A stretch of DNA of 39,158 bases from an uncultured bacterium (GCA_903930015.1 CAIYXB010000079.1:1-39158), one strand, 5' to 3'. Positions 7,680 through 31,152 are shown, counted from the first letter of the stretch. Numbers and translations are program-made. Notes: a model not told the origin generated them from the sequence alone.

Positions 7680-8203
7680 TGAGTGTTAAAATATGGCTAA
7701 ATCAGCCTGGTATAGTAAAAAAACTACAGCTTTTGGCTTTAATAAGCCTGAGCTTGAATATTTTTTTACTCCTAAATAGAATTCCTCAATCCTGCAAAAA
7801 TAAGCCCGCCCAAGAGCTGCCAGAGCCCAAGGAGGAGCAAAAAAAGCAAACCAGTAATCTAGAGATCAAAAATTTTCTCAAAGAGTATTTAAATTACTTT
7901 TTTGGTACTGGACTTGTAGCAAGAAGTTTTATAGAAAAATATTCAGATGAAGAACTTTTTAAAAATGAGCTTGCTGATCAGCTTGATCAAAGAACACTAA
8001 AAGAGTTATCTAGTAATTTTAACATCTCAGATTTTTACATTGAAACAAAAGCCCAGGACACATATCAAATCATACTTGTTGGTATAGAGAGTTTTAATAA
8101 TAATCAATACCAAGATAGAGAAATTACTATGATCTTAGAGTTAATCTACCAAGACGATAAGTTCATAGTCCAATCTATACCTAAGTTTGAGGTGAAAGCA
8201 TGA
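7679..8203 (+). CDS. bitopic membrane protein, positional VirB8/TcpC-like candidate
   Basis: One N-terminal TM helix followed by a domain of about 120 aa with alternating beta-like segments. The ATG overlaps the upstream TAA by 1 nt. Confidence 0.3.
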   Translation: MSVKIWLNQPGIVKKLQLLALISLSLNIFLLLNRIPQSCKNKPAQELPEPKEEQKKQTSNLEIKNFLKEYLNYFFGTGLVARSFIEKYSDEELFKNELADQLDQRTLKELSSNFNISDFYIETKAQDTYQIILVGIESFNNNQYQDREITMILELIYQDDKFIVQSIPKFEVKA

Positions 8204-9495
8204 AATTTAAATTATTAATAGTATTAGTATCCCTTCTTCAAGTAATGTCAGTCAAATCCGAAGTAAGCTTTGTTGACAAGATACTTGATCAACAAACAAA
8301 TGAATATCTAGAAGACCGAGACTATTTTCAAAAAATAAATATTCACACAAAAGAATCTCCTCTTGCAAAAAGTAAAGAAGAAAAAGAACTATTTTCATTT
8401 GAGCAATGGGAAAAATTACGCGAAGATAATCTAGGCGCAATAGATCTTGGTAAAGATATCGCGTTAAATAAGATAGGTGGACTTGCAACTGGAGTAATAG
8501 ACGTAACTCATCAGGTGAAAAGAGGCGTCAAATCAGCAATTCAAGAGAGTTTTGGTGGTTATGCAGAGTACCAAAGACGAAAACAGGTTGAGGAAATCGC
8601 AAATAGTACCTTTATAAACCGAAAATTACTAGGAGATCTCTTTATAAGAAACAACAATGAAGATTTAGAAATGGGTTTTCAAAACAAAGGATTTAGTTTT
8701 ACTAGTTTTAATGAAAAAACATATAGCTATAAACTAATTAGAGAAATAGTCCAAAACGAAACCATCAAAAATCTTAGAGGGTTGATCATAAAAGTAACTA
8801 TATTTTTACTTATGTTGATGATTACAATTAAGATACTTGCTGCTCTAAAACAGGGTAACAGTGTCATTGAGACATTTACAAAGCCCTTAATAAATTTAAT
8901 ATTAGCCTTAATAGCAATTGGAGCTGGTTATAAGTTTCTAAGTTTAAATCTCAACTTAGCAAATAAACTCGCAAAAGCATTTACCATGATGCTCTATGAT
9001 TTTAAGGCTGAGTCATTAATGAATCCAGGTGAAGCTTGGACAAGTTATGCTGAAGATTATGGTTATTTCCCAACAATGGTTCTTGCAGTATTTGATATGC
9101 TATCGCAAGTGTTTATAGGATTTTTCTATATTGCAATTATTGCATTTATAGTATTTGGTATGATTTTTTATCCATTTTGGATAATATTTTCTGTCTTTCA
9201 ACCTAGTAGACTGGTTTTTATTGAATCCTACATTAATTGGATAAAAGCAAATTTGGTTTTAGTATTTAGTCCAATATTAATTATAATTTTTCGTATCATA
9301 AGCTTAGAATTGAGTAATGACTATATATTTATGAGTATTTTGGCAAAGACTCTGAGTTTTTATTCATTACCACTTTTAATGTATTTTATTTTCCTAAAAG
9401 CAAATCCCACAATTGACTTTGATTATGAGAAAATTGATTATTCAAGTCAATTAAAAGAAGAAATTAGAGACTTGCTTGCAATAAAAAATGCTTAG
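8200..9495 (+). CDS. polytopic membrane protein, VirB6/TrbL-like candidate
   Basis: Signal peptide, soluble region of about 190 aa, then five or more hydrophobic helices. ATGA overlap with the upstream gene. Confidence 0.35.
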   Translation: MKFKLLIVLVSLLQVMSVKSEVSFVDKILDQQTNEYLEDRDYFQKINIHTKESPLAKSKEEKELFSFEQWEKLREDNLGAIDLGKDIALNKIGGLATGVIDVTHQVKRGVKSAIQESFGGYAEYQRRKQVEEIANSTFINRKLLGDLFIRNNNEDLEMGFQNKGFSFTSFNEKTYSYKLIREIVQNETIKNLRGLIIKVTIFLLMLMITIKILAALKQGNSVIETFTKPLINLILALIAIGAGYKFLSLNLNLANKLAKAFTMMLYDFKAESLMNPGEAWTSYAEDYGYFPTMVLAVFDMLSQVFIGFFYIAIIAFIVFGMIFYPFWIIFSVFQPSRLVFIESYINWIKANLVLVFSPILIIIFRIISLELSNDYIFMSILAKTLSFYSLPLLMYFIFLKANPTIDFDYEKIDYSSQLKEEIRDLLAIKNA

Positions 9496-17145: not shown

Positions 17146-19004
17146 GCAGCTAAAAGATTATTCCTAATACTACCTTTATTGTCTAAATAATATTTTGAAT
17201 TTCGTAAAGAACTTATGTAAGGATGAACAACTTTGTACTGATCAGCTCTCTTTCTATCGGCTTCTTTTTTTGATCTTTTTGGCTCAGCTAACAAAGTTAA
17301 CTTAGGAGCCCAGATTGTCTTAAAGGCATCCACAGCACCTTTCGTCTCTTCTTTATAAGCAACAATGTCCTGAATATGCCAATTACCCCAGTTCCTCATA
17401 AATTTAAAAATTTTATCTCTTGATTCTTTAAAGACATCAAGTTTAACTAATTCTGTTTTAAAGGCTTTGTCATCAAGTGATTTGTTCTCTAGCAAAGCTT
17501 TCAGTCCAGTTATAGGATTCGCTTCTGCTTTTTTTAGGGAGCTTTGAATATCATTCTCTAAAGAAGTTATAATATCCCTGAACTTAATCAATGCAGTATT
17601 AATTTTTTCAGGATTAGGAATTTCCATTACATGATCTTTATATAACTTATCTCTATCTACAACACCCTCAGCAACAAACCAATTTATCAATACTTGTGAA
17701 ACAACAGCATCAAATACATCATTAACATCATTTTGAGTAGCGTAACGCAGCATTCTTTCAGATAAAACAAAATCCCTAATTACATTAATAAGCCTATGTT
17801 GAATTTTATCTCCAAATTTATTTGTGTCCGCAAAATCAATCAAAGCTTGAATATCAACTCTCATTTCTTCAAAAGCTGCTGATTCAAAATAGTCTTTTAA
17901 AAAATAACCAACATCTTTTATTGTTCTTGGTTGCAGCCTCTGATCACCTGGCAATGCAATTTCAGCATCAGAATTTACTCTAGGAATCTCTCCAGTTCGA
18001 TGCAAATCCTCGTGACGAGTTAACCAAAAAGAACTTGCCTTAAAAATATCTGAAGGAAGAACATCCTTGAGTGTAGCAAAAGTATTTTTAGCAACTCTTG
18101 AAATATTACTTAAAGCATTCGATGAACTTTCATGAGCAGAAGTAAATAAATTTCCTATAGCAACATTCAATTTAGTTACAAAAGTATTACCGTTATCAAT
18201 CAATGGATTTAACAGCTTAGTTGTAAATTTTTTAAATCGATTGTAAAAAAAATCTGCTTTATAAAGAGTAAATGAATTGGGATTAACTTCACCTACATGC
18301 GCTTCAGGAAACAATCCCACCAAGCTCGGATTTTTCATTTCAAGGCTTGAATTAGTAGATTGTGAGACTCTTGATTTTGAACCTTCTAGGAGAAATTTTT
18401 CTAGAAACATCTTATCAATAGATTTCCAACCAATTACGGGTACATGCATATTTTTGATAAATGGGATTTTAAATAAACTGAAAATAAAATTCGTATCTAA
18501 TTGATCAAATACAGCTCTTGTACGACTAAAATCACCAATCTTTGAATCTTTAACTGCTACTTGAAACATAGGGTGAGATAAAAATTCATATTTTTTTCTT
18601 TGATCAACAGATAAAGATTTTGAAATATGATTATCACTGTGTAGATCAAAATGTGCTTCAAATATTTTTTGAAATTCTCCCTGCAACTCTCTTTTTAAGC
18701 GAATCTCTTTATCAATTAGCTGGCCCTTATCTAATGTATTAGCTAAGCTATCATAAACAGCTTGTAGCTCAGCTGCTTTATCATCGATGAGAGTGTTTGC
18801 TTTTATAGTTAACTCATCAAGCACTTTAAAATTTTCTTTACTTAAATGTAATCCAGCAAATTTTGGCACTGGCACATGTAAAATACCTGAATCAGGCTCA
18901 ATAATTTTTTTTCTTACTGAAGGCTGAAGTCCCAAATCACTTACAATCTCAAGAGGGTGAACTGAGGGAGTATTTCTTTTTAAACTAGTAATTGCTGTAA
19001 CCAT
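17142..19004 (-). CDS. hypothetical protein (620 aa), no recognisable domain
   Basis: Long uninterrupted ORF. Stop codons overlap convergently with the LuxR-type gene. Confidence 0.5.
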   Translation of the reverse strand: MVTAITSLKRNTPSVHPLEIVSDLGLQPSVRKKIIEPDSGILHVPVPKFAGLHLSKENFKVLDELTIKANTLIDDKAAELQAVYDSLANTLDKGQLIDKEIRLKRELQGEFQKIFEAHFDLHSDNHISKSLSVDQRKKYEFLSHPMFQVAVKDSKIGDFSRTRAVFDQLDTNFIFSLFKIPFIKNMHVPVIGWKSIDKMFLEKFLLEGSKSRVSQSTNSSLEMKNPSLVGLFPEAHVGEVNPNSFTLYKADFFYNRFKKFTTKLLNPLIDNGNTFVTKLNVAIGNLFTSAHESSSNALSNISRVAKNTFATLKDVLPSDIFKASSFWLTRHEDLHRTGEIPRVNSDAEIALPGDQRLQPRTIKDVGYFLKDYFESAAFEEMRVDIQALIDFADTNKFGDKIQHRLINVIRDFVLSERMLRYATQNDVNDVFDAVVSQVLINWFVAEGVVDRDKLYKDHVMEIPNPEKINTALIKFRDIITSLENDIQSSLKKAEANPITGLKALLENKSLDDKAFKTELVKLDVFKESRDKIFKFMRNWGNWHIQDIVAYKEETKGAVDAFKTIWAPKLTLLAEPKRSKKEADRKRADQYKVVHPYISSLRNSKYYLDNKGSIRNNLLAA

Positions 19005-19081
19005 TAATTATTACTAAAGAACATTATATAAGAAGTTAACTAATTACACTAATATTTATTATTTTGATATAATTTAATTAA

Positions 19082-20029
19082 ATGGAATCAAAATTAGAGA
19101 TAAAAAATGACTTCTGGGGAGAACTTGATCTTGACGGTGTAATAACAATAGCATCAAGACTAAAAAGGTTATCTGATCTTTTTTATCAACAAGTACAAGA
19201 AGTATATGATTCAAGATTAAGAAGTTTTAAAACCTCCTGGTTTTCGGTACTAGCAACAATCAAAAGAGAAGGTGTTATTGATTTTAAAACTCTTGCAGAT
19301 AAAAACAATGTTTCAAACTCTGCAATTTCGCAAGTAATAAGAGAATTAGAAAACAAGGAACTTGTTGATATTAAAATTGGATTAGATAAAAGATCAAGAT
19401 TAATTTCATTAACTCCAAAGGGAGATAAAATACTTAGCAGTATAATTCCTGACTTAATTGATATCGAATCTGTACTTAAAGATATTTTAGGTAGAGATGG
19501 ATCTTTTTTAATAAAAGTCTTGGATAAAACAGAATACAAACTTAGAAAAAGTTCTTTCTTCGATATGCTTGAAATTTCAATTGATAAATATAATACAAAG
19601 GATAAAGATTCGTTTAGAGAGCTTAATATGGAGTGGATAAATGAATATTTTGGCTCATGTGAAGATTTTGATATTAGTTTTTTTGAAAGACCTGAAGACT
19701 TTACCTTCAACAAAGGGGGTTTTATATTACTTGCCAAGCAGAATGATAAAGTTATTGGAAGTATCGCACTTATACCTGAATCAAAGACAAGTTTAGAAAT
19801 AGCAAAATTAACTACACATAAAGACTTTAGAAGAAGAGGCATAGCACAAAAACTTTTAGACTCAGCAATTATTTTTACCCAAGCAAATTCTTACAAACAA
19901 ATTACGGCTCATTCTAATACTTGTTTAAAAGAAGCTCAAAAATTTTACGAGAAAAATAAATTTGAATCTAAACCATATCAAGATGATAGATATAATAGAG
20001 TAGATGTTATATACTCAAAGAAGATTTGA
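19082..20029 (+). CDS. MarR-type HTH / GNAT N-acetyltransferase fusion protein
   Basis: Winged-helix segment (VSNSAISQVIRELENKELV...DKRSRLISLTPKG). C-terminal GNAT motif A (HKDFRRRGIAQKLLDSAI). Confidence 0.75.
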   Translation: MESKLEIKNDFWGELDLDGVITIASRLKRLSDLFYQQVQEVYDSRLRSFKTSWFSVLATIKREGVIDFKTLADKNNVSNSAISQVIRELENKELVDIKIGLDKRSRLISLTPKGDKILSSIIPDLIDIESVLKDILGRDGSFLIKVLDKTEYKLRKSSFFDMLEISIDKYNTKDKDSFRELNMEWINEYFGSCEDFDISFFERPEDFTFNKGGFILLAKQNDKVIGSIALIPESKTSLEIAKLTTHKDFRRRGIAQKLLDSAIIFTQANSYKQITAHSNTCLKEAQKFYEKNKFESKPYQDDRYNRVDVIYSKKI

Positions 20030-20046
20030 CTAGGAATAAGTAATCT

Positions 20047-21237
20047 ATGGTAAGTGCTACAATTCCCGAAATTCAAACAGGTATTCCAGTTATTAGGGAT
20101 TTTCATAATGTCCCTAGAACTCAGGTAGTTACTACTCAAATCGATGAAAAAAGAGTAATAGGGAAGGGACTTGCCAAACAAACTCTTAGATTTGATTACC
20201 AAACGGAGGACCTGAAATTTTTTTTAGGAGAAGATGGTTTTAATCAATTTATATCTCAACTAGAAAAACAAAATCCAGATAAAGCAATTTCACAAACTGA
20301 TTACGATGTTGCTTTTTTAAAGTATCTTACTATCTCTTCTAACAATCAATTAGAAAAAGGGCTTGGTTCACTCAAAGATATCGCAAACAAAGTGATGAGT
20401 CAAGTACCAAGCTTATTAATCTATAGTGCTGGGCAGGAGGTTCAAGATCTTTTTGAACACCAACCGAGATTAACTCAAAAAGCAATTGAATATTTAGTTC
20501 TTGATGATGAAAGATCTGGACTCGCAAGTCAATTCAAAGATTTCAATAAATCAACTAATTACAATATCACTTCTGATGCTAAAAGAGAATTATTTTACGA
20601 ATTAGCAATGAGGGTACTTAGAGCTAAAGTAATTAAAGCTTGGACAAACCCTAAAGTAGAGAGCCAAGATCAACTATATCAAGCAAGGTCAGAGGCTTTA
20701 AAACAAATTCAATTAATAGAAAAGGGAAAAGAAACTAGTATGCTTACATCAAGAAGTAATAAAGCTTTAACTCTAGCTCAATTGCTTGCTGTGTCTGCAA
20801 TAGTTTTAGCTGGGTTGAATGGAATATTAGGTAAACAAGTAACTGATCTTAATCAAGTGGTTGGTGATAAACAGCTTGAACTTGAACAAAGACGAGGTTT
20901 ATCTATATTACAAGGGGATACTATTCCAACCTCAACACAAGAACAAGCACTTAAAGCGCTCACCCCAACCGAGCAACAATTCTTTAGGGATCTATCGAAT
21001 GAATTAATTAAGCAAGCAAAATTAAGATTTCCAAATGAAACTAAACGTGAATTTTCTTTTCTACTAGGTAAACTAGAACAAGATAAAATCAAAATGATAT
21101 TAAAAAATGAAGGCAGGATTCATTTCACGATACCTATACGTACATTCCAGGAATTATACAATAAATCAACAGTCATATCAACAGAAACTAGTCCAATAGA
21201 AAGACTTATTTTAGAGTTACCTAAATATTTAAATTAA
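20047..21237 (+). CDS. hypothetical protein with one central TM helix
   Basis: Long ORF. TM segment LTLAQLLAVSAIVLAGLNGIL. No domain recognised. Confidence 0.45.
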   Translation: MVSATIPEIQTGIPVIRDFHNVPRTQVVTTQIDEKRVIGKGLAKQTLRFDYQTEDLKFFLGEDGFNQFISQLEKQNPDKAISQTDYDVAFLKYLTISSNNQLEKGLGSLKDIANKVMSQVPSLLIYSAGQEVQDLFEHQPRLTQKAIEYLVLDDERSGLASQFKDFNKSTNYNITSDAKRELFYELAMRVLRAKVIKAWTNPKVESQDQLYQARSEALKQIQLIEKGKETSMLTSRSNKALTLAQLLAVSAIVLAGLNGILGKQVTDLNQVVGDKQLELEQRRGLSILQGDTIPTSTQEQALKALTPTEQQFFRDLSNELIKQAKLRFPNETKREFSFLLGKLEQDKIKMILKNEGRIHFTIPIRTFQELYNKSTVISTETSPIERLILELPKYLN

Positions 21238-21649
21238 CACTTCCCAATTTCTTCCTTTTACAATGAATTGGATCATTAGGAACTGCATCACAATACGTTG
21301 GAGCACCACAACATGGATTCCAAGTATAAGGTGAATCACAGCCGTAAGGACAATCATCATCATCTACTCCATAAAAAGAAGGTGTTGTAATAAGTTTTAA
21401 CAAACTAGATTCATTCTGATAATTTCCAACCAATTCATCTATAGCAGATTTAAAAGCTCCGCCTAATCTTTTTGTAAATTTAGCGTCTTGTGTTGCAGAC
21501 TCAATACAAACAGTGACAAGAGGATTTCTTCCGATTGTCTTACAATTAGTTTCAGCAAAAGTTAAAACATTGGATTTCTTAAAACTTTGTGCAAAAACAG
21601 CGATTTGAAAAATCACTAAAACGGGTAATATAAATTTTAAAAACTTCAT
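21221..21649 (-). CDS. small secreted cysteine-rich protein
   Basis: Signal peptide MKFLKFILPVLVIFQIAVFA. AGGAGG Shine-Dalgarno. Cys-rich C-terminus (DDDDCPYGCDSPYTWNPCCGAPTYCD...HCK). Confidence 0.5.
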   Translation of the reverse strand: MKFLKFILPVLVIFQIAVFAQSFKKSNVLTFAETNCKTIGRNPLVTVCIESATQDAKFTKRLGGAFKSAIDELVGNYQNESSLLKLITTPSFYGVDDDDCPYGCDSPYTWNPCCGAPTYCDAVPNDPIHCKRKKLGSVNLNI

Positions 21650-22226
21650 CCTAAGTCCTCCTAAAGACTCACCCCAGTGACTACCCCTAGGTAAATTACT
21701 TGTCGGACGAATTAAAATAAATCTAGAATAAAATACATTAGTACTTAATTAATTTTTTTTAATAGTTAAAAATGGGGTTTTTTCTTAGCAATGCCTTTGA
21801 ATGAGTTACGTTCACTAATCAAATCGATGCGGCTAAGTCTTTGTAAAAAAAGAAAGGTGTTTATAGTAACGGCAGTAACTTCATCTCTGTCGGTATTCGA
21901 AATGCTATTTCTCTTTTTTGGGTTTACAAAAATTATCTTTTTGTTTTGCATGAGTGGGGGACCTGCCTTTTGGTTTCTATAAACACCTGGGTGTTCACCC
22001 TTCAATATCGGTTAAGTGCTTAACTAAATGAATTAATCATTTCTTATAAAAGAATAAAAAAAATCCTTATTTTACAAGGGTTTTTCAGAATTAATTTCGC
22101 AAATACGAAGACACTATTACAAAAATATGTGTAATAGTGTTGAAGAGAAAATCTCAAATTTCAAAAATGCGCAAGTTTCCTTGTGAATTTAGGATTTACA
22201 AAAAGTTATGTTGAAATTATTTAATA

Positions 22227-22360
22227 AATAGACATCTTGCGAAACATCGTTTCGCAGTAGATGTCGCCCGAAAAAAGGTCGCAACGACGCCACTCTTCGG
22301 AAGTTGCGCTAAGGATAATTCCGACTTTCACAAAAGGTCTAATGAGTATCTAACTTAAGA
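22227..22360 (-). repeat. unit U copy B (reverse complement of 14987-15118)
   Basis: Hand alignment shows only a handful of differences over about 132 nt. Contains the gacatct...agatgtc and gcgaaac...gtttcgc nested hairpins. Confidence 0.65.
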
Positions 22361-22363
22361 AAA

Positions 22364-22580
22364 TGGTACCGGTATCTGGGTTTCGCCCGGACTGTGTGTG
22401 CCGCCCCGCTCGAAGATACATAGGAAAAATAGTATAGGCGTAGCTGCCGACTTTTAGGAGGCAGATGCGCCTATACTAATTCTTCTAGCTGTAGTTTGTG
22501 AGCTTGCGAGCAAACTACAAGTGAGTGTCTTCGAGCGGGGCGGCACACACAGTCCGGGCGAAACCCAGATACCGGTACCA
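22364..22580. repeat. 217-bp palindromic element: perfect 53-bp inverted arms enclosing two hairpins
   Basis: 22364-22416 is the exact reverse complement of 22528-22580 (checked base by base; 34/53 are G/C). Inner hairpins are 22430-22440/22468-22478 (11 bp) and 22490-22498/22511-22519 (9 bp). Confidence 0.75.
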
Positions 22581-22786
22581 CTCTGACAACCGAATACGCT
22601 TTGGCTTTAAGCCAGCCCTCGGCTTCGCTTCGCTCAGCCTCGGGCGTCTCGCGCTAACAAGTGAGACTACAGTGTTAAAGAGCTGCTTCTTTAAGTTTGA
22701 TTGTAATTTTTGTCTGAAATTTTACAGGGCTGCTGCAGCTGTCAGTCAGCAGAGCTGAAAAATTTCAGACAAAAAATCATAGGGAA
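22573..22786 (+). repeat. repeat X' (left inverted repeat of the island)
   Basis: 22573-22658 equals the reverse complement of 30986-31071 with 1 mismatch. Lower-identity homology with an indel of about 22 nt continues to about 22786. Contains an 11-bp perfect stem (22712-22722/22760-22770). Confidence 0.7.
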
Positions 22787-22831
22787 TGCAAGGAGGCGAA
22801 GCCGACGCGCTAGTCTTCATTGCGCAGCAAT

Positions 22832-22983
22832 TTGAGTGAGCCCGTAGGGCGAGCGAATATATTACTGCAATACGAGAAACCCTAAAGTGCCACTTTAGGG
22901 TTATACACAAGCCTTTATCTCAGCGTGCGGAGCGAGACCTAGGCTCGCGGACTCCTGAACAAGGGTGAATTTCTAGCTACGAC
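22832..22983 (+). repeat. repeat Y copy 1 ending in the Z motif (22964-22983)
   Basis: Direct repeat of 25321-25470, clearly alignable by eye over about 150 nt with numerous substitutions. Conserved hairpins ccctaaagt/actttaggg and gcgag/ctcgc. Confidence 0.6.
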
Positions 22984-23178
22984 CGTATTCCATCAGAATT
23001 ACCACTCATAGGTTGGAAGCGAGACAAACAAATAATTACAAGGTCTTTGATATTTTTTTTCTAAACAATTCAATGAAAGTTGATGTCTTTGCTTTTATGA
23101 AGTGAGACTGAAGGGCTCACGGAACCAATCTGAGACGCTAGACTCAGATTGCAAAAACCTATTCAATTTGTATATTAA

Positions 23179-23913
23179 TTAATGTATACGTCTCCAACGT
23201 TTAAAAGCCTTGACCTCAGTAGAATTTAAACCAAACCACTCACCATTTTTTCTTTTATCCACAAAACGCTTATGCCAGTATGCTTCTATGCCGCTTGGAT
23301 CGTCAGTTTTGATTACATGAACCAATTTAAGATCTTCAGGCATTTGAACTCTCAATTCCTTTCCTCGCTGAACAGAATCTTTACTTTTACCAATTTTGTA
23401 CTCGTTACGATTACCGTGTTTATAAAGATATACTTCTCCTACTTCCAAACTAGTATCAGTTCCATTTATATCTTGTTCACGGGAAGATGTTTTTATCACT
23501 GGCTCACAAAATTCTAAAATATCTTCATAACTATTTTTATCACTACAATATTCTATTATTTTTGATGCAAGATGTTGTTTTGAGCCATAACGATTTTCAT
23601 AAGTTGATTTGTAAGGAAATTTATCGTTACTACATGCTTCCAACCTAATCTCTGAGGCAGTGGGAAATTTATTTAATTTACGCATTAGTTCAATAAATTT
23701 CTCAATAAGAAATTTATCGCTATATGCTCCCTGCAAAGAATTGGGAGTAAATCCTGCTTCTGTAATCGCGTCTGAAAACTTAGCCCAATGTTTTTGCCAA
23801 TCATAGCGTTTAATACCAATTTCTTTTTCAAACTTTGCCATACCTAATGGCTTGCCACCATTTGACTCTGTGGTTCTTTTTATCTCAGCTAAAATCTCTT
23901 CTTTACCTATCAA
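23179..23913 (-). CDS. T5orf172 (GIY-YIG-like, MUG113-type) domain protein with two N-terminal homing-endonuclease-associated-like repeats
   Basis: C-terminus VYLYKHGNRNEYKIGKSKDSVQRGKEL...IEAYWHKRF...NGEWFGL. TTG start preceded by AAGGAGA, which overlaps the ImmA stop codon. Confidence 0.6.
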   Translation of the reverse strand: MIGKEEILAEIKRTTESNGGKPLGMAKFEKEIGIKRYDWQKHWAKFSDAITEAGFTPNSLQGAYSDKFLIEKFIELMRKLNKFPTASEIRLEACSNDKFPYKSTYENRYGSKQHLASKIIEYCSDKNSYEDILEFCEPVIKTSSREQDINGTDTSLEVGEVYLYKHGNRNEYKIGKSKDSVQRGKELRVQMPEDLKLVHVIKTDDPSGIEAYWHKRFVDKRKNGEWFGLNSTEVKAFKRWRRIH

Positions 23914-23924
23914 ATGGTTCTCCT

Positions 23925-24425
23925 TTAATTGCTTTTAAATATTTTGTGATTATACACATGCCACCAAGCTGCATCTTTACTAACATTGTAAAGTCTAGCT
24001 AAACTTTCAACATCTCCATCCAGCTTTTCATAATCTTGCTTAAATGAATCAATAGGCATAAGTAACTCAGCAGCAAACTGGTTTGCCTCTACTTCCTTTG
24101 GATCATCATTGCAAAAATCTAATTTTGTTTCAGAGTCTGCATGTCCTAGAATGACATGACCTAATTCATGCGCAACAGTAAATCTTTGTCTAACTATAGA
24201 TTTTTTGTTGTTATAACCAATAATGGCTCTACCATTTTCAAAAAAATGAAGACCGTCAATGCTTCCCAAATCCCTTGCGTGAATCTCTACATTCATAGTC
24301 TTACGTACTTGTTTGATAATTTCATTAAGAACTATAGGGGCAGATTTTAAGCCAGTCTGCTCCAGTAATTTTTTAGCAAACTGCTTTGCAATTTTAATTC
24401 TTGCTTTATTCTCTTCTTCAATCAT
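23925..24425 (-). CDS. ImmA/IrrE-family zinc metallopeptidase
   Basis: HELGHVILGH motif followed downstream by EVEANQFAAELLMP. ATGA overlap with the XRE gene. Confidence 0.85.
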   Translation of the reverse strand: MIEEENKARIKIAKQFAKKLLEQTGLKSAPIVLNEIIKQVRKTMNVEIHARDLGSIDGLHFFENGRAIIGYNNKKSIVRQRFTVAHELGHVILGHADSETKLDFCNDDPKEVEANQFAAELLMPIDSFKQDYEKLDGDVESLARLYNVSKDAAWWHVYNHKIFKSN

Positions 24426-24769
24426 TTATTCTGGCTTTTTACAAACTCAATGAAATCTAATATTTTGTCCCTATCTTTGGGTTTCAATTGTGAAAGTTCT
24501 TTATCTTTACGAAAAACTAATTTGAAATCTAAGTCTTCAAGATCTTCTGATTTGCCTAAAAAGAAATTAATATCCCTATGCAGCACCTCTGCAATAGTTT
24601 CTAAATCTTCCACTGAAACTTTTCTATTCCCAGACTCAATCAATGAAATTGCAGTACCAGATTCAAAGCCTAATAATTCTGCTAATCTTTTTTGTGATAT
24701 TTCTGCGGACTCTCTTGCTTCTTTAATTCTAGCCCCAATAAGTTTATACTTATTATCATCGCTTTTCAT
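24422..24769 (-). CDS. XRE/Cro-cI-family HTH repressor
   Basis: IGARIKEARESAEISQKRLAELLGFESGTAISLIESGNRKVSVEDLETIAEVL. Confidence 0.85.
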   Translation of the reverse strand: MKSDDNKYKLIGARIKEARESAEISQKRLAELLGFESGTAISLIESGNRKVSVEDLETIAEVLHRDINFFLGKSEDLEDLDFKLVFRKDKELSQLKPKDRDKILDFIEFVKSQNK

Positions 24770-24775
24770 ATTGAA

Positions 24776-24842
24776 ATTATAGACTTTTCAAAAAGTGTTG
24801 ACAAGTCCTTATCAAAATGATAAGCTAGGGTTATCAAAGTGA
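24776..24842. promoter_or_regulatory. back-to-back promoters with overlapping -35 boxes, plus palindromic operator sites
   Basis: Plus strand: TTGACA (24798-24803), 17 nt, TAAGCT (24821-24826). Minus strand: TTGTCA (24804-24799), 17 nt, TATAAT (24781-24776), ending 6 nt before the XRE ATG. Palindrome CTTATCAAAATGATAAG at 24808-24824 and half-site TTATCAAAGTGA at 24831-24842. Confidence 0.5.
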
Positions 24843-24885
24843 GGCACACGTGTGTTTCACAAGAAAACTAGAGGAAATTAGAATA

Positions 24886-25167
24886 ATGGCAAATTATGAA
24901 ATAAAATGTATTAACAAAATTGATAGAAATGATCCTACTGAAAGAATCCAACGTGTTGGTGGTTATAGCAACGGCTCGAATTGGAAAATTACTGTCGCAG
25001 AAGCTATTGGTTACATAGAAAGTAAGCAACATAGTTTTTATGTAACTAAAAATGGTAAAACCGTATGGGTCATTGTCGCTGTGAGTAGATATGGAAACAA
25101 ATATATTAAAACCGAAGCTGATGGTAACGAGCCAAATAACCTGCTCAGCTTGCCAGAGTGTGTATAA
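24886..25167 (+). CDS. DUF3892-like small protein
   Basis: Start placed at the ATG at 24886 (GAGGA upstream). C-terminal ...TEADGNEPNNLLSLPEC matches my memory of the DUF3892 signature. Confidence 0.55.
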   Translation: MANYEIKCINKIDRNDPTERIQRVGGYSNGSNWKITVAEAIGYIESKQHSFYVTKNGKTVWVIVAVSRYGNKYIKTEADGNEPNNLLSLPECV

Positions 25168-25172
25168 ATGGT

Positions 25173-25238
25173 ATGACAGTAAAATACTTCATCTATGCTC
25201 GCAAGTCTTCCGACTCAGAAGATAGACAAGTGCTTTCT
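25173..25238 (+). pseudogene. displaced 5' stub (first about 22 codons) of a paralogous large serine recombinase gene
   Basis: MTVKYFIYARKSSDSEDRQVLS compared with MQYFLYARKSSESEDRQMLS of the intact gene at 29457. Most nucleotides match by eye, including an identical 15-mer TCAGAAGATAGACAA (25215-25229 = 29493-29507). Homology stops at about 25238. Starts 5 nt after the DUF3892 stop. Confidence 0.7.
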
Positions 25239-25248
25239 GAACCTTGGA

Positions 25249-25311
25249 GTCGTAGCTATAAATTCACCCATTCTTCGGCTTTAACTAAAAAGGTGAATTT
25301 CTAGATACGAC
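25249..25311. repeat. inverted pair of Z motifs (20-nt arms, 2 mismatches, 23-nt loop containing CTTCGG)
   Basis: gtcgtagctataaattcacc (25249-25268) against ggtgaatttctagatacgac (25292-25311). Confidence 0.6.
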
Positions 25312-25320
25312 CCAATTGTC

Positions 25321-25470
25321 TTGAGTGAGTCAAAGGCGAACGAAAATATATTACCAAAATACAAGCAACTCTAAAGTACCACTTTATACTTATGCACAAG
25401 CCCTTAATTCAGCATGCGAAACGAGACCCAGGCTCGCAGAGCCATGAACAAGGGTGAATCTCTAGCTACA
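25321..25470 (+). repeat. repeat Y copy 2 ending in the Z motif (25453-25470)
   Basis: Direct repeat of 22832-22983. Ends 22 nt from the stop codon of the minus-strand TIGR04141-like gene. Confidence 0.6.
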
Positions 25471-25491
25471 CCCCCCTATCTTTTTTAAAGA

Positions 25492-27327
25492 CTATTCATC
25501 AAGATCACTCTTGCAAATTTGACATATCTTTAAGTCAAAATCATATTTTTTAACTTCTTGATTTAGCTGAAAAATAGAGAACTTTGCAATATTTGATTCA
25601 AAGGATTCAATATCTGTGATCGATCTTATCGTAGAAGCTTCATCTACAAAAGCTAAACAAAATTCAATTCTTTTTTTGCTCCTAAATAAATCAATGAAAT
25701 CAGATTCAGAATATCTTGATAGCCAATCACTAAATTTTCTAAAATATTCATCCTCACCTTTTGATACTCGAACAGCTTTTTCGTAAACTTTTTTTAAAAA
25801 CTCACCTTTCTTTGTTTTTATAAGATCTTCATGAAGTCTTCTTGCTGAGACTTGGATTTGGCTAGAAAGCTCACGAATAGAATTATTAAATCCTTTCTTC
25901 ACATGAATAATTTGTATAGAATCTTCATTCACCTTAATAAGATCACAGAGTTCAATATTCTCAACAATTAACCTATCAAGTACAATAAAATTTGCATTCC
26001 TATAGAACGAAATATTAAAATCTTTTTCTTTCTTATGCTTGAGAATGTTCCAAGGTACACCAATAACAGAATTATCAAGATGCGTATCTAGTAAAGTTCT
26101 TATCCCACTATTAAGGTTGTCAATAAAATTCCTTTTTACTATATACCAAAGTCCATCAATAAGAAAATAAGTTTGTTTCTTAAATTCAAACTCACCATGA
26201 ATATGACTAGTCAAAGAGCCTACAGTACAGACTTTACCGTCATAATCAAACGATGTAATATTAATGTTTTTAATGAGTCTTAAAAAACTTTCTTTATCGA
26301 TATCACTATATTGTGAAGATACTTTAAGCAACTTAAATATTTCTATCGGTCTAGTCAAAGATACTTCATCAATTATTGCTTCAAAACTTCTACCAATAGT
26401 TATTTTATACTCATTCGCACATAAATACTTTTCATAATCTTTATGACACAGATCAAATTCATTAAAAGGATCATTTGCATTTTCAATATTACAATATTTT
26501 TTGAATAGTTCTTCACCGATATGTTCATTAAGACTATCTCGTAGTTCCTTGCCACGCTTTCCATTTTTACTTAGAGATTTAATTTGACTTAAATCTATTG
26601 TCGACTTCATTCTTAAAATAGTGCTAAGTTTCTTTAAAATAAGTGTAATTTCATAAGGATCTAATATCTTTTTAAGGAGGAATGATGACTTCGCCTCACA
26701 AGTTAAGTTCTTTTTTATATCTTTCTCATTAAAACCTAACTGCTTTTGAAGAACACCTTGATCTAATTCTGCTCTAATCACTTTATAAACACTTCCAAAG
26801 TTATCTTCCTCTGTGATTCTTTGATCATCTCGAAAAAAACGTGTGTTAGCTATAATTTGTCCAGTTAAAATTCTTTCTTGTACTGATTTCACTGATTTAG
26901 AACTTGATGAAATTAACTTTTCAAGTATATTTAAGCCAAAATCATCAACAACAAAAGGTTGAATAATATGATGGCCATAACCTCCTGTAACCGCAAAAAT
27001 ATTTTTTCCATCAGAAAAGAAACAAACAAACGATGGAATATTATTTGTTTTTAAATTGTATTTCAAATCATCAGTCATCAAAGTTGATAAGAATTTATAC
27101 CAAGTTGCCTCTCTTGAAAATACACCACTGTAAATGTAAATATCAAAATTATTTAATTCTAATCCACTAACAGTCTTTCTCTCTTCAAATTTTTTCTTTT
27201 CACCCTTATTATAAAATTCAATAACTTTATTACAAATTTCCTTATGATCAACCAAACCTGTTTTCTGTGATATCAAATCAAGATTTAATAGATAGATGCC
27301 AGTCTGTATACCAGATTTACTTCCCAT
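25492..27327 (-). CDS. TIGR04141/DUF6119-like protein with a C-terminal PD-(D/E)xK-like motif (putative nuclease)
   Basis: C-terminal ...VLDRLIVENIELCDLIKVNEDSIQIIHVKKGFNNSIRELSSQIQVSARRL. Start preferred at the ATG at 27327 (GGGAG Shine-Dalgarno) over the TTG at 27360. Family call is from memory of family signatures and needs an HMM search. Confidence 0.5.
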   Translation of the reverse strand: MGSKSGIQTGIYLLNLDLISQKTGLVDHKEICNKVIEFYNKGEKKKFEERKTVSGLELNNFDIYIYSGVFSREATWYKFLSTLMTDDLKYNLKTNNIPSFVCFFSDGKNIFAVTGGYGHHIIQPFVVDDFGLNILEKLISSSSKSVKSVQERILTGQIIANTRFFRDDQRITEEDNFGSVYKVIRAELDQGVLQKQLGFNEKDIKKNLTCEAKSSFLLKKILDPYEITLILKKLSTILRMKSTIDLSQIKSLSKNGKRGKELRDSLNEHIGEELFKKYCNIENANDPFNEFDLCHKDYEKYLCANEYKITIGRSFEAIIDEVSLTRPIEIFKLLKVSSQYSDIDKESFLRLIKNINITSFDYDGKVCTVGSLTSHIHGEFEFKKQTYFLIDGLWYIVKRNFIDNLNSGIRTLLDTHLDNSVIGVPWNILKHKKEKDFNISFYRNANFIVLDRLIVENIELCDLIKVNEDSIQIIHVKKGFNNSIRELSSQIQVSARRLHEDLIKTKKGEFLKKVYEKAVRVSKGEDEYFRKFSDWLSRYSESDFIDLFRSKKRIEFCLAFVDEASTIRSITDIESFESNIAKFSIFQLNQEVKKYDFDLKICQICKSDLDE

Positions 27328-27462
27328 GAACTCCCTATCTAAACCATTGCTCCATTCCAAAGATAAATTAGTTTAATTTCAATATCATTAATTATTTTTT
27401 GATTAGCATTAAAGGCATAATCTAAATTTTCAAGTTCTATATTCATACACATCAGATCAAAA

Positions 27463-29343
27463 TTAAACTATTTTCTTTTTCTCAAGAAGCTTAGCTTTAA
27501 AATGAGCCTGAGACTCACGCTTTACTTCATCAAGAAAATTACTCTCTTCAATCTCTTTAAATTGTTCATTACTAATATTTTTTCGTTGTTTTGATTGTAT
27601 ACCCAATCCATCATTAATTCTCTTGCTTACAAAACGTTGTATCCAAGCAAAATCAGTAAAGCGAGGGTTCAGGACTCTGCTTTTAAACTTTAGATTCAAT
27701 TCTTTCAATATGTCCGTCACTATACTTTTTGCTTTTTCATTTAATAAATTTTTACTTGCTTGACGTTTATTTTTTGGCTTTGGCGTTTTTTTAACAAAGG
27801 AGTCTACTTTATAACCTTTATTACTCAACACTTCTAAAAATTTTAATTTCTGAGCGCTGTCCATATTTGCAAAATCAGATAGAGCTTCTTTAACTTTTTC
27901 ATCTTCAAGATCAATAAAATCTGAAGAAAAGTCAAGTAAATTCTCACCCGTTTCTCTTATTGCAGCAAGTTTTTCATCTTTTTGATTATTTGTATCGGTT
28001 TCTATATCAAAATTTACAAAGGAGTCCTCTAAGTTACCTTTACTATCATCCACAGAAATTTCAAGTTTACTAATAAAATCCTGATCTTCTTCATCAAATA
28101 ATTTAAATTCATCAAATCTTTCAATCTGATTCAAACCAAGATGTGAAACAACCCAACACTCATTAGTCTCAGCATGCTTTCGAATTACCCTACCAATAAA
28201 TTGAATATATGGATTAAGCGACCTGAATGGCTTAAAGATTGCAGCAACACCAAGAGGTTTGTGATCGAAACCTTCTCCCAACATACCAACATTTACGATT
28301 ACGTCAATTTTGTTTTTCTTTAACTTATCTAATACTTCACTGTTATCACTTTCAGTTTCTTTTGAATTAACAAGTCCTACTTTTAATCCCATTCTTTCAA
28401 AAGCGGGTTTAACGAATTCTCTTGCATGCCTTATAGTCATTGCAGCTGCAATAATCTGATGGTTTTGATTTGGGAACTTCGTTTTTAAGACATTAAGCTT
28501 TTCAACTGCTTTTTGAGCAATAGAAGCACAACAGTCTTCAGACATAGCAACACTACGTCTAAACCAAGCATCATCTTTAAGTTTCATAATGTCACTAAGA
28601 GAATATTCTTTCCCAGCTTCATCTAAAAATCTTAATTCAACTTGTTCTGGAGAAACATTACTCGTTCTAATATTTCTAATAATTCGATCTCTAATCGCAT
28701 CCTTAAAGTGATAAGTATAGATCTTTTCCCCATCAAGCTTTTTACCATCAGACCGAAAAGGAGTCGCAGTAAGTCCAATTATTTTTGCATTTGAAAAAAA
28801 ATCTATAATCGTCTTATAGGTATTTGCTTCTTGATGATGAGCTTCATCAATTATAACGAGATCAACATCATCGCTTCTGCTTGCAAAAAACTTTTCAATA
28901 TCATTGAGTTGATGATAATTTCCAATAATTATTTGATGTTCGTCAACATCCGAATTATTAACAGTCGAATCAAGAACCAATGTAAAAAGTTCTGATTCCG
29001 TCAATTCTTTATCTGATAAAAGCTCTAGTGCTTTATAAATATTTGCTCCAGGGTTCTCAGTTATGTCCAGATCATCATTTATTTGAGTTGCTAAAGCTTT
29101 ATTCGGTGTAATAATAAGAGTTTTTTTCTTACACAATCCAAAAGGCAGTATTGCAATTAGAGCCGACTTCCCTGTACCTGTAGGCATTTGAATCAGTGTT
29201 TGTCGATTATAATTTTTTTTAGAATAATGCTGAAGTGCTGAACTAAATGCTTCAGTTTGGCATTCTCTTAACTTCTTTCTAGAAATCTCTATTTCACTAA
29301 ATACATTACTCATCTGATTAATAATATCCAAATTACTAAACAT
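27463..29343 (-). CDS. SF2 DEAD/DEAH-box helicase (ResIII + Helicase_C type) with a C-terminal extension of about 200 aa
   Basis: Motif I MPTGTGKS, Ia IITPNKAL, II IIDEAHHQ, III GLTATPFR, VI QFIGRVIR. Confidence 0.8.
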   Translation of the reverse strand: MFSNLDIINQMSNVFSEIEISRKKLRECQTEAFSSALQHYSKKNYNRQTLIQMPTGTGKSALIAILPFGLCKKKTLIITPNKALATQINDDLDITENPGANIYKALELLSDKELTESELFTLVLDSTVNNSDVDEHQIIIGNYHQLNDIEKFFASRSDDVDLVIIDEAHHQEANTYKTIIDFFSNAKIIGLTATPFRSDGKKLDGEKIYTYHFKDAIRDRIIRNIRTSNVSPEQVELRFLDEAGKEYSLSDIMKLKDDAWFRRSVAMSEDCCASIAQKAVEKLNVLKTKFPNQNHQIIAAAMTIRHAREFVKPAFERMGLKVGLVNSKETESDNSEVLDKLKKNKIDVIVNVGMLGEGFDHKPLGVAAIFKPFRSLNPYIQFIGRVIRKHAETNECWVVSHLGLNQIERFDEFKLFDEEDQDFISKLEISVDDSKGNLEDSFVNFDIETDTNNQKDEKLAAIRETGENLLDFSSDFIDLEDEKVKEALSDFANMDSAQKLKFLEVLSNKGYKVDSFVKKTPKPKNKRQASKNLLNEKAKSIVTDILKELNLKFKSRVLNPRFTDFAWIQRFVSKRINDGLGIQSKQRKNISNEQFKEIEESNFLDEVKRESQAHFKAKLLEKKKIV

Positions 29344-29456
29344 TTGCTTGAATTTAGCTAATCCATATTAACAAAACTGTCCATTCAATAGCTTCTTTTT
29401 ATCTAACAATATTACTACCTGGCCAAACCACACAAAATCCTTTAAAATAAAGCTCT

Positions 29457-31010
29457 ATGCAATACTTCCTCTACGCCCGCAAATCTTCTGAATCAGAAGA
29501 TAGACAAATGCTATCCATTGAGGCTCAAATCCAGGAGTTAAAGGACTTTGCGAAGAAAAACAACTTAGAGATAGTCAAAACCTTCACTGAATCCATGTCA
29601 GCCAAGGCACCTGGGAGGACTGTCTTTAATCAAATGCTGACCGAGCTTGAATGTGGTACGGCTGATGGCATACTGGCTTGGCATCCTGACCGTCTTGCAC
29701 GAAACATGTTTGACGGTGGAAAACTTCTGCACCTTATCGACAAGAATATAATTACTGATCTTAAATTTCCTAGTTTTTATTTCGACAAATCGGCTAATGG
29801 AATTTTTAATCTCTCTATTGCTTTTTCTCAGGCTCAATACTTTGTTCAAGGACTCAGAGAGAATGTCCTAAGAGGAATTAGACAGAAACTAAGACGCGGG
29901 GAATATCCAGGCAAGGCTCCTTACGGCTATATCAATAACCTAAAAACTAAAACAATAGAACCAGATCCTGAATATTTTCACATAATCCAAAAACTACTTA
30001 ATAAATTCTCTGAAGGCAATATGACTCAAGCAATGTTCAGAAAAGAATTATTTAATCATGGTTTACAAACCAAGAACGGTAACCAATTAAACTATGCTTC
30101 ACTATTTCATATTCTCACGAATCCATTCTACTATGGGGTCTTTAGGCTAAATGGCGAGCTTCATCAAGGCTCACATCAGCCAATGATCTCTAAAGAAACT
30201 TATGACAAGATTCAAGAAGTTCTTAAAAGCAAAACTAGAAAAGTAAATCACTCAGAAGAAAAGAAAAAAGAAAAAAACTATCTCTTCCAGGGTCTTGCTC
30301 GCTGTGGTAATTGTGGCTATGGAATCGTTCCAGAATGGCACAAGAAGAAATCTGGTTTGGTTTTTAAGTATTATCGTTGTAGCCGTAAGTCTAGAGTCTG
30401 CACTTGTGATGAAAAACCAGTAAACGAGAATCATCTTGCACAGCAAGTAGAAGAATTTATCAGCCACATAGCTATGCCTAATGATTGCTATAAAAAACTT
30501 CAAGAAAGAACCAAGCAATGGGCGGACGAAGATACTAAAAACTCTAAAGTGGCACTTCAGGGTTTATCTACAGAACTAACAAGTATCCAAAATAAGCTTA
30601 ATCAGCTTCTTGATCTTCAACTAGACGGTGAGATCTCCGTAGCTGAATACAAAAACAAAAAAAACACTTTAATCGAGAAAAAGGCCAATTTAGAAGATCA
30701 AAAAGCCAAAGTTTTAGCTAAAGGCTCAATTTGGGTTGAACCACTAGAAGATTGGATGAAAACCTGTAACCAAGCCGCTCAAAGCCTAAAGAGTCAAAAC
30801 TTTCAAGAGATGAATCGTATTCTTCAAAAAATCGGGTTGAACCACAGAATCTCGAAGAAAAAACTAGATATACAGTTTGTTAAACCCTATGATTTTTTGT
30901 TTGAAATCCAGCCACTGACTGACAGCTGCAGCAGCCCTGTAAAATTTACAGACATAACTAATCATCAAACGCAAAGAAGCAGCGCGTTAGCGCGAGACGC
31001 CCGAGGCTGA
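29457..31010 (+). CDS. large serine recombinase (resolvase domain + recombinase domain + zinc ribbon + coiled coil)
   Basis: YARKSSESEDRQ catalytic-serine region. LAWHPDRLARN. CGNCGYGIV...YYRCSRK zinc ribbon. Coiled-coil LNQLLDLQLDGEISVAEYKNKK. The last 42 or so codons lie inside repeat X. Confidence 0.85.
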   Translation: MQYFLYARKSSESEDRQMLSIEAQIQELKDFAKKNNLEIVKTFTESMSAKAPGRTVFNQMLTELECGTADGILAWHPDRLARNMFDGGKLLHLIDKNIITDLKFPSFYFDKSANGIFNLSIAFSQAQYFVQGLRENVLRGIRQKLRRGEYPGKAPYGYINNLKTKTIEPDPEYFHIIQKLLNKFSEGNMTQAMFRKELFNHGLQTKNGNQLNYASLFHILTNPFYYGVFRLNGELHQGSHQPMISKETYDKIQEVLKSKTRKVNHSEEKKKEKNYLFQGLARCGNCGYGIVPEWHKKKSGLVFKYYRCSRKSRVCTCDEKPVNENHLAQQVEEFISHIAMPNDCYKKLQERTKQWADEDTKNSKVALQGLSTELTSIQNKLNQLLDLQLDGEISVAEYKNKKNTLIEKKANLEDQKAKVLAKGSIWVEPLEDWMKTCNQAAQSLKSQNFQEMNRILQKIGLNHRISKKKLDIQFVKPYDFLFEIQPLTDSCSSPVKFTDITNHQTQRSSALARDARG

Positions 31011-31071
31011 TCGAAGCGAAGCCGAGGGCTGGCTTAAAGCCAAAGCGTATTCGGTTGTCAGAGTGGTACCG
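30885..31071 (-). repeat. repeat X (right inverted repeat of the island)
   Basis: Reverse complement of X' (22573-22786). Overlaps the recombinase 3' end and the last 8 nt of the tRNA. Confidence 0.7.
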
Positions 31072-31152
31072 ATGGCCGGACTTGAACCGGCACAGGAATT
31101 AATTCCCGACAGATTTTAAGTCTGTTGCGTCTACCGATTCCGCCACATCGGC
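31064..31152 (-). tRNA. trnL: tRNA-Leu(UAA), class II, CCA-encoded, no intron
   Basis: Folded by hand. Acceptor GCCGATG/CATCGGT (G1-U72 wobble). D-arm GCGGAATCGGTAGACGC. Anticodon stem ACAGA/TCTGT with loop CTTAAAA. Long variable arm GGAATTAATTCC. T-arm GCCGGTTCAAGTCCGGC. Discriminator A followed by CCA. Confidence 0.9.

Follow-up and report, generated by a model that had tools for sequence, protein, structure and literature searches.

We analyzed a stretch of 39,158 nucleotides from an uncultured bacterium (GCA_903930015.1, CAIYXB010000079.1:1-39158), called the window hereafter, which carries two direct repeats of about 150 nt, each consisting of a part named Y and of a terminal 20-nt motif named Z (GGTGAATTTCTAGCTACGAC). 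Comparative analysis shows that both repeats lie in a putative island of 8,700 bp (22364-31063) beside a tRNA-Leu(TAA) gene (Table 1). These limits are based on TGGTACCG, found at the start of the left arm of a palindrome (W), which directly repeats the tRNA-Leu end (8 bp, 22364-22371 and 31064-31071). From left to right, the island contains W, an inverted copy (X') of the region X that joins the gene of a large serine recombinase (LSR) to the tRNA gene, a linker, a first Y-Z copy, a cargo operon, a DUF3892 gene, a truncated LSR gene, an inverted pair of Z motifs, a second Y-Z copy, a second cargo operon, and finally an intact LSR gene and X. The intact LSR carries the domains PF00239, PF07508 and PF13408 (Pfam, E=2e-19 to 3e-11) and its gene ends 53 nt from tRNA-Leu. 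The GC content of the non-coding blocks is 43-50%, compared to 30% for the genome. The window encodes an IlvB with 82% identity to proteins of Candidatus Melainabacteria metagenome-assembled genomes, and its sequence depth in lake-water metagenomes is 2-4x.

Table 1. Features of the island in the window, and Y-related elements in related loci (L numbers). Older and younger refer to the stacking model described in the text.
Locus	Feature	Position	Strand	Description
Window	W palindrome	22364-22580	.	island left end; arms 22364-22419 and 22525-22580, 98% complementary, 105-nt spacer
Window	X'	22581-22784	+	inverted copy of X (LSR 3' end to tRNA-Leu); outer ~85 nt with 1 mismatch to X
Window	Linker	22785-22831	-	two small hairpins, GGC-GAA-GCC and ATTGC-GCA-GCAAT (GCAAGGAGGCGAAGCCGACGCGCTAGTC...)
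Window	Y copy A	22832-22963	-	H1 22878-22902, then U-rich tract (minus strand), H3, H2 (GCGAG..CTCGC)
Window	Z1	22964-22983	+	20-nt motif, cargo-proximal end of Y copy A
Window	V	23096-23155	.	two hairpins; kept in L020 and L012, two compensatory pairs
Window	Older-island cargo operon	23179-24769	-	three genes
Window	T5orf172/MUG113 nuclease-domain protein	23179-23913	-	Pfam
Window	ImmA/CapP-like peptidase M78	23925-24425	-	Pfam, PADLOC
Window	XRE (CapH-like)	24422-24769	-	Pfam, PADLOC
Window	DUF3892 gene	24850-25167	+	directly upstream of LSR stub (Pfam)
Window	LSR stub	25171-25237	+	second LSR gene; first 22 codons (MTVKYFIYARKSSDSEDRQVLS)
Window	Z2(-)/Z3(+) inverted pair	25249-25311	.	20-nt arms, 23-nt spacer; at cut-off junction of older LSR
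Window	Y copy B	25321-25472	-	H1 decayed; ends in Z4 (25453-25472), 19 nt from DUF6119 stop
Window	Younger-island cargo operon	25492-29343	-	two genes
Window	DUF6119 protein	25492-27360	-	Pfam; called TIGR04141-like in the preliminary description
Window	ResIII/DEAD helicase	27463-29343	-	Pfam, PADLOC
Window	Intact LSR	29457-31010	+	Resolvase, Recombinase and Zn_ribbon_recom; last 42 codons within X
Window	X	30885-31063	-	conserved, LSR body to tRNA 3' end; partner of X'
Window	tRNA-Leu(TAA)	31064-31152	-	candidate integration target; last 8 nt recur at 22364-22371
L010	Full Y	6787-6906
L019	Full Y	506-625
L011	H1 part of Y only	near 6590		model match 6547-6658
L013	H2 and H0 of Y	9296-9398		model match; two genes between linker and H2+H0
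L014	H2 and H0 of Y	1785-1887		model match
L021	H1 of Y	about 165-205		just outside W
L020	V-type element	274-345		conserved with window V, two compensatory pairs
L012	V-type element	210-306		conserved with window V, two compensatory pairs

The two direct copies, already pointed out in a preliminary description of this DNA, were recovered by BLAST of the window against itself (22832-22980 vs 25321-25469, 79.5% identity over 151 columns, E=7e-29). As also described there, Z was found four times by a pattern scan of the window at up to three mismatches (22964+, 25249-, 25292+ and 25453+), including the inverted pair, and none of 100 shuffled sequences contained any match; pairwise, the copies share 16-19 of their 20 nucleotides. 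Each Y-Z unit is located directly 3' of a minus-strand cargo operon, in agreement with the proposal that the repeats mark module boundaries. The distance between the end of Z1 and the T5orf172 stop codon (23179) is 195 nt, as stated before, while that between the end of Z4 and the stop codon of the DUF6119 gene (25492) is 19 nt instead of 22 nt. The recombinase stub reported at the inverted Z pair is real, since positions 25183-25237 are 85% identical at the nucleotide level to positions 29461-29515 of the intact LSR gene, and this homology stops 11 nt before Z2. The CTTCGG sequence described there as tetraloop-like belongs to the 23-nt Z2-Z3 spacer and is not closed into a tetraloop.

Neither BLAST self-comparison nor a covariance model of Y revealed further Y-Z copies in the window, and the depth of Y-Z in lake metagenomes holding the genome is that of a single-copy sequence. 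Y-Z is thus not present in many dispersed copies as an interspersed (REP- or MITE-like) repeat would be, in contrast to R1, an unrelated 134-nt repeat that adjoins the island left end (22227-22360, with an inverted copy at 14987-15118, 95% identity). The depth of R1 (positions 22227-22348) in the lake metagenomes is 15-20x that of neighbouring sequence with many different flanks, so that R1 looks like a multi-copy MITE-like element of the genome.

Homologs of the window LSR number thousands, with 49-62% amino acid identity for the closest ones; exact-protein look-ups with the LSR and RpoD of the window returned no record. We fetched ten related metagenomic LSR loci (L008-L014, L019, L020 and L021) and found the LSR gene convergent to a tRNA gene or fragment in all ten. 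The targets are tRNA-Leu-CAA (L008, L019), Val-GAC (L009), a Met fragment (L010), Arg-TCT (L012), Ile-GAT (L013/L014, which are the same element, the L014 contig starting just inside X') and Glu-TTC (L020, L021). Only a 3' tRNA fragment is kept in L010 and L011, the one of L010 matching tRNA-Met, and overall the related loci sit at six to seven other tRNA genes. Their comparison shows a canonical layout that reads host, W, X', linker, Y (with or without Z), variable cargo, LSR, X and tRNA, where the cargo is mostly encoded on the strand pointing at Y. In line with the suggestion that cargo might differ between relatives, the genes between the conserved ends are entirely different among loci and mostly defence-like (type I/II restriction, Mrr, RelE/MqsA, Zeta toxin, a TIR-domain protein, DUF4238 and AAA ATPases). 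LSR relatives in IMG/VR and in plasmids reach only 21-26% identity, so that neither of these two collections holds phage- or plasmid-borne members of the family.

The closest database LSR open reading frames (ORFs; P0002-P0011) stay open through X into the tRNA antisense, with C-termini such as ...EWYRWSGSNRH. Either the LSR C-terminus is truly encoded in X, where a PYDFLSE motif is conserved (window 30885-31010), or these are run-on gene calls. In L010, an island of ~10 kb with tyrosine integrases later entered the same tRNA-Met gene and left an 87% identical tRNA fragment beside the LSR island (11662-11732 vs 21542-21612), so that islands of different types compete for a single tRNA.

The left end of the islands is built in an unusual way. 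W is present left of X' in six loci (the window, L009, L011, L013, L019 and L021), and each of its arms mimics a tRNA 3' half with a T-loop-like motif, TTCGAGC; in the window, both arms end in CGGTACCA. Over its final 6-8 nt, each arm matches the 3' end of the tRNA that adjoins the island concerned (GGTACCA for Leu/Glu, CCACCA for Val/Ile), and a repeat of the target tRNA end (CCACCA or GTACCA) is found at the far border in L009, L013, L019 and L021 as in the window. In the window self-comparison, 230 nt running from the LSR 3' end into the tRNA 3' end (30885-31090) are found inverted at 22554-22784 with 79% identity. The inner part of X' comprises an almost perfect palindrome of 69 nt (22707-22775) and a core of 33 nt with full identity to 30915-30947. 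In L009, L010, L011, L013, L019 and L021, X' is likewise inverted and located 1.3-8 kb upstream of the LSR gene; it is cut by the contig end in L012 and L020. BLAST found no X' in the too diverged L008, whose left end shows, by eye, a W-like start (TGGTACCGG) and a linker-like stretch. The linker is near-identical in L010, and in L011 and L019 it carries a compensated hairpin (GGC-GAA-GCC to CCAC-GAA-GTGG). Predicted folding energies were -90 to -181 kcal/mol for W and -32 to -48 kcal/mol for the X' palindrome, with a slight advantage of the plus strand in both cases. No strong hairpin is predicted for the X copy that lies within the LSR gene.

The X region is homologous across loci and starts directly after the CCA end. 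Because this homology is seen beside different tRNA genes and in different hosts, we excluded that X is host DNA downstream of the tRNA. Five loci were aligned; within each of them, X and X' agree to 99-100% over their outer ~80 nt, although this stretch differs strongly between loci, and their inner parts have 70-85% identity and a core in common. With the W arms taken into account, the outer parts (window 22573-22658 vs 30986-31071; L009, L010, L011 and L013) are 98-100% alike per locus. This identity points to possible copy correction, or to one end having been copied recently from the other. We also considered X and X' as an invertible switch and found no support for it, since inversion at the shared core would alter neither the LSR tail nor the tRNA and since the LSR gene lies beside the tRNA in all ten related loci.

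From this anatomy, the LSR crossover is likely to take place within the 8-bp tRNA 3' end (22364-22371 / 31064-31071). The junction between the left arm of W and X would be the equivalent of attP, and the junction between the right arm of W and X' its inverted duplicate. Nothing in our analysis indicates that the LSR acts on Y or Z.

Y itself is composed of predicted hairpin modules (H1, H3, H2 and H0) that are variously combined between the island left end and the cargo. In an alignment of seven Y sequences, the four helices comprise 25 pairs and are 94.6% paired, with seven pairs that change on both sides. For example, CCCTAAAGT/ACTTTAGGG is replaced in a compensated stem by CCTTAAAGT/ACTTTAAGG or CCCTATAGT/ACTATAGGG, and GCGAG/CTCGC of H2 by GTGAA/TTCAC or GAAAG/CTTTC. 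The covariation score was reached by none of 500 shuffles, sliding the partners by 1-3 columns lowered pairing to 25-53%, and RNAalifold agrees with the Y helices. Compensatory changes in relatives, proposed before as a check, thus back the hairpins. The preliminary description had attributed conserved hairpins to both window copies, which applies in full to copy A only. In copy B, H1 reads ctctaaagt/actttatac, so that much of the hairpin is gone without compensation, and folding is no better than that of shuffled sequences (z +1.2 and -0.5). According to our own reading, V may be a partial extra Y made of helix H2 and of the further helix H0.

Several features indicate on which strand Y would be folded. 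G-U outnumber A-C appositions by 12:3, favouring the minus (cargo) strand, and in three of four loci this strand is also the one on which linker and Y together fold better. After H1, a U-rich, UUGUAUUUU-like tract can be read on the minus strand in every copy. H1 has an 11-bp stem with 3-4 GC pairs that is followed by UCUCGUAUU, and GUUGUAUUUU-like tracts occur in the other copies. Between the window and L010, X'-linker-Y is 70.5% identical compared to 64.5% for the LSR genes of the same pair, and from this slightly higher identity we take the non-coding stretch to be under selection.

With regard to the concern that Y copies might be scattered, all hits of the covariance model in the 193 kb searched fall in LSR islands. 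They include weak hits within LSR genes, at one conserved position (window 30519-30624, L019 2779-2845 and L020 8142-8244). There, LSR 30526-30568 is a look-alike of H1 in the same orientation (30/43 nt) that encodes a conserved peptide, EDTKNSKVALQGLS. If Y is present as RNA of the minus strand, it would be complementary in part to the LSR mRNA there. With Rfam 15, the tRNA alone reached the gathering score and no family matched Y; relaxed thresholds over 21900-25600 gave sub-threshold, chance-like hits, mostly to miRNA precursor models. Y was also evaluated as a coding sequence, given that both copies hold a 42-codon open frame that runs to the same TGA. This was ruled out, as the frame has no start codon, the other frames contain stops and the L010 linker differs by an indel.

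Z is weakly conserved in the loci of relatives, and pattern scans returned no hit in IMG/VR, one in GTDB representative genomes and six in JGI metagenomes, none of them with Y beside it. We treated these hits as chance matches because their contexts are unrelated, mostly AT-rich and devoid of an adjoining Y. The best outside match (L002 8982-9005 / L007 5019-5042) is found on a contig of very high AT content, beside a sequence that by eye resembles a tRNA gene; since its surroundings show no similarity to Y or X, it is probably fortuitous. Z therefore appears as a lineage-specific flank of Y, whose role is undemonstrated.

Inside the complete outer frame 22364-31063 there are two Y-Z units, an LSR stub and two cargo modules, the second cargo operon having its own regulators. 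In relatives, each island carries a single Y; the presence of two in the window can be accounted for by two LSR islands stacked at one tRNA-Leu gene, and not by an array of cassettes. A second, related island would have integrated at the same tRNA, between it and the first island. A deletion of ~2.2 kb would then have run from codon 22 of the older LSR gene to the linker of the younger island, removing the body of the older LSR gene and its X together with the younger W and X', and leaving the Z2/Z3 hairpin at the junction. In the alignment, the conserved linker (CGACGCGCTAGTC) falls opposite Z3 and the flank on its 3' side (ACGACCCAATTGTC), so that Z2/Z3 may be the linker hairpin of the younger island. 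L009, where X' occurs twice (5884-6004 and 7744-7840) with a toxin-antitoxin/GNAT module (GNAT, RelE and MqsA) in between, seems to be another example of island stacking with partial decay.

Taking these observations together, we are fairly confident that Y is an island-end module, that the LSR family targets tRNA genes and that the window contains two stacked islands. For the overall reading, which includes a role as RNA, we lean towards Y-Z being the cargo-proximal part of a conserved, structured non-coding island end region. The RNA role as such is proposed more tentatively and falls somewhat short of probable: Y could be the structured 3' end of cargo transcripts, ending or stabilising them and shielding the recombination region. 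The minus-strand transcript of the cargo operon would have Y as its 3' end, and Y would fold there into three to four hairpins, of which the last, H1, would end or stabilise the transcript together with the conserved U-rich tract. Cargo transcription would thereby be kept away from the X'/W recombination region and from the host flank. The 3'-UTR or terminator function, mentioned as an alternative in the preliminary description, is thus the best-supported reading here.

Several observations weigh against it. The covariation of Y draws on four full and three partial sequences only, and H1 is decayed in Y copy B. A terminator scan did not call H1, its U tract being interrupted and its stem AU-rich. 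The region does not amount to a single, simple minus-strand RNA, as W and the X' palindrome are predicted to fold better on the plus strand. Y is modular, absent from L009 and reduced to H2 and H0 in L020 and L012, meaning that it is not essential to the island. The deletion model leaves the origin of 54 nt at 25238-25291 unexplained. Finally, mobility and the exact crossover are deduced from comparative anatomy, as neither an empty site nor a circle was seen: no joint of an excised circle or of an empty site was found in Logan contigs of four lake metagenomes, where the depth is 2-4x.

We weighed four other explanations. That Y-Z is a small regulatory RNA (sRNA) from the minus strand, 3'-UTR-derived or independently transcribed, with Z as single-stranded seed, H2/H3 as body and H1 as terminator, acting in trans for instance on the LSR mRNA, seems unlikely to us. 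Its shape would fit (an unstructured 5' part, hairpins, then a terminal hairpin with U tract), the covariance model matches LSR genes in antisense at three loci (the window at 30519-30624 with 29 bits, L019 and L020), and Y copy A matches LSR 30526-30568 at 30 of 43 positions. However, this complementarity is only about 70% and could be accounted for by coding constraint on the conserved peptide, nothing promoter-like is found on the minus strand ahead of Z, and Z of copy B is only 19 nt from the preceding stop codon. We find it a little harder still to accept that Y-Z or the Z palindrome is a recombination site at which the LSR or a host system swaps cargo in an attC-like manner. Cargo that is wholly different among relatives and flanked by Y and the LSR upstream region would be expected from it, as would the two genes between the linker and H2/H0 in L013; the Z2/Z3 pair (63 bp) is roughly att-sized and sits exactly at the LSR stub breakpoint, and the Z copies (19/20) are more alike than the Y copies (80%). 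Yet homologous recombination between the conserved flanks can explain cargo swapping, Z is barely conserved in relatives, and the candidate crossover of the whole family is the tRNA 3' end at the W-X junction, which is unlike Z. In addition, the island has neither attC core motifs nor a tyrosine integrase, and the G-U asymmetry argues for a single-stranded, strand-specific role rather than for a duplex protein site.

A single-stranded role could also be played by DNA, with Y, W and X' forming one long hairpin-rich element that serves as transfer or replication origin, or as folded recombination substrate, of the excised island. The entire left end is indeed a run of long hairpins, for W and the X' palindrome with the energies given above, the near-identity of the outer X/X' parts and of the W arms per locus suggests intra-strand pairing or copy correction, and DNA hairpins tolerate G-T pairs as well. 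But relaxase, Rep and primase genes are missing from the island of the window and from most relatives, the strand preferred by W/X' is opposite to that of Y, and LSR elements are not known to have a single-stranded DNA intermediate, so that we hold this explanation to be improbable. Least probable of all is that Y-Z is decaying junk, left over from an LSR gene or an old island end and duplicated as a by-product of rearrangement. The decayed helices of copy B that fold like shuffled sequences, the resemblance of Y to an LSR-gene segment and the piecemeal loss of Y modules in relatives would agree with it. Against this, Y is conserved at 70% between islands with LSR proteins of just 50% identity, three of its helices show compensatory changes, all frames contain stop codons, and its position relative to cargo is constant in independent loci.

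The cargo of the window resembles a pair of defence modules. In the first, the T5orf172/MUG113 protein is preceded by XRE and ImmA regulators of the CapH/CapP-like type (PADLOC, E=6e-14 and 5e-32); the second combines the DUF6119 protein with the ResIII/DEAD helicase, whose top PADLOC match is PbeA (E=8e-22). Outside the island, the right edge of the window carries an IS4-like transposase gene (37542-39134, DUF4277 and DDE_Tnp_1, 530 aa), and a gene of the same length with the same two domains is found in L011 (2072-3664). The host flank (13783-14694 and 17142-21649) encodes a protein that looks by eye leucine-rich-repeat-like and several ORFs without Pfam matches, among which a small Cys-rich ORF with an N-terminal hydrophobic stretch (21221-21649).

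The island can be compared to several known systems. Among tRNA-targeting integrative islands, a minority of the tycheposons and cryptic elements of Prochlorococcus has an LSR, while 910 of 937 elements are reported to have tyrosine recombinases (Hackl et al., bioRxiv 10.1101/2020.12.28.424599). Both they and the islands described here are small, carry cargo and sit at tRNA 3' ends; a site-specific recombinase is found at one end and a short tRNA-end repeat marks the opposite border, the adaptive or defence cargo varies, and several islands can stack at the same tRNA. The window differs by its inverted attachment-region duplicate, tRNA-mimic palindrome and Y-like hairpin modules, which that study does not describe, and by its Melainabacteria-like host.

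Staphylococcal cassette chromosome (SCC) elements use the Ccr large serine recombinases at rlmH and accrete in tandem at this site, where older units are often without recombinase genes and repeats mark the unit boundaries. Tandem accretion of LSR-driven islands with recombinase-poor older units is thus common to both. SCC elements, however, target a protein-coding gene and have short att repeats as boundaries, with no long inverted duplication of the att region, whereas here the targets are tRNA genes and the modules are structured and 150 nt long.

A likeness to integron cassettes had been put forward. Imperfect structured palindromes 3' of cargo genes and strand-specific folding are shared with attC sites. 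The defining features of integrons, which are the tyrosine integrase IntI, RYYYAAC/GTTRRRY core sites and arrays of promoterless single genes, are all missing here. The island recombinases are one LSR and one LSR stub, with no Phage_integrase hit among island ORFs (Pfam). The core sites are absent from both strands of 22780-23000 and 25240-25490, and instead of a cassette array there are two units only, each after a multi-gene operon, the first of which has a promoter-like site (11/12 matches) upstream.

Rho-independent terminators and 3'-UTR-derived sRNAs resemble Y in having an operon-end hairpin with a U-rich tract and extra hairpins upstream. Unlike them, Y is a conserved multi-helix module common to islands with unrelated cargo, and its U tract is interrupted. 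The bridge (seek) RNAs of IS110/IS1111 elements are also structured non-coding modules at the end of a mobile element, beside its recombinase system, in a family reaching many targets. They work with DEDD/Tnp recombinases and pair with target and donor, while the recombinase here is a classical LSR and no target-complementary loops were found, so that the resemblance to IS110 is only a lead.

The hairpin modules are new conserved structured motifs, absent from Rfam, and in our literature searches we found neither this LSR family nor an inverted copy of an LSR attachment region nor such modules described. If Y were merely a terminator or insulator, the result would be useful but ordinary. It is a long shot that W, X', the linker and Y are working recombination parts and not passive transcript ends, with an LSR family that presents or chooses its attachment site through folded RNA or single-stranded DNA. 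If true, this would explain how close relatives move between at least seven tRNA genes, how the last 6-8 nt of the mimic change to match each tRNA and why the attachment-region copies stay identical within each island. Beyond this, the analysis describes a compact family of LSR islands (3-9 kb) at many tRNA genes of Melainabacteria-like and related uncultured bacteria, carrying restriction, toxin-antitoxin and other defence genes, whose conserved non-coding modules make island borders recognisable for metagenome annotation. Its unusual anatomy, an inverted attachment-region duplicate with a palindromic tRNA mimic whose end tracks the target tRNA, was not found described for serine integrases and is relevant to how target specificity shifts in LSRs, enzymes in wide use for genome engineering.

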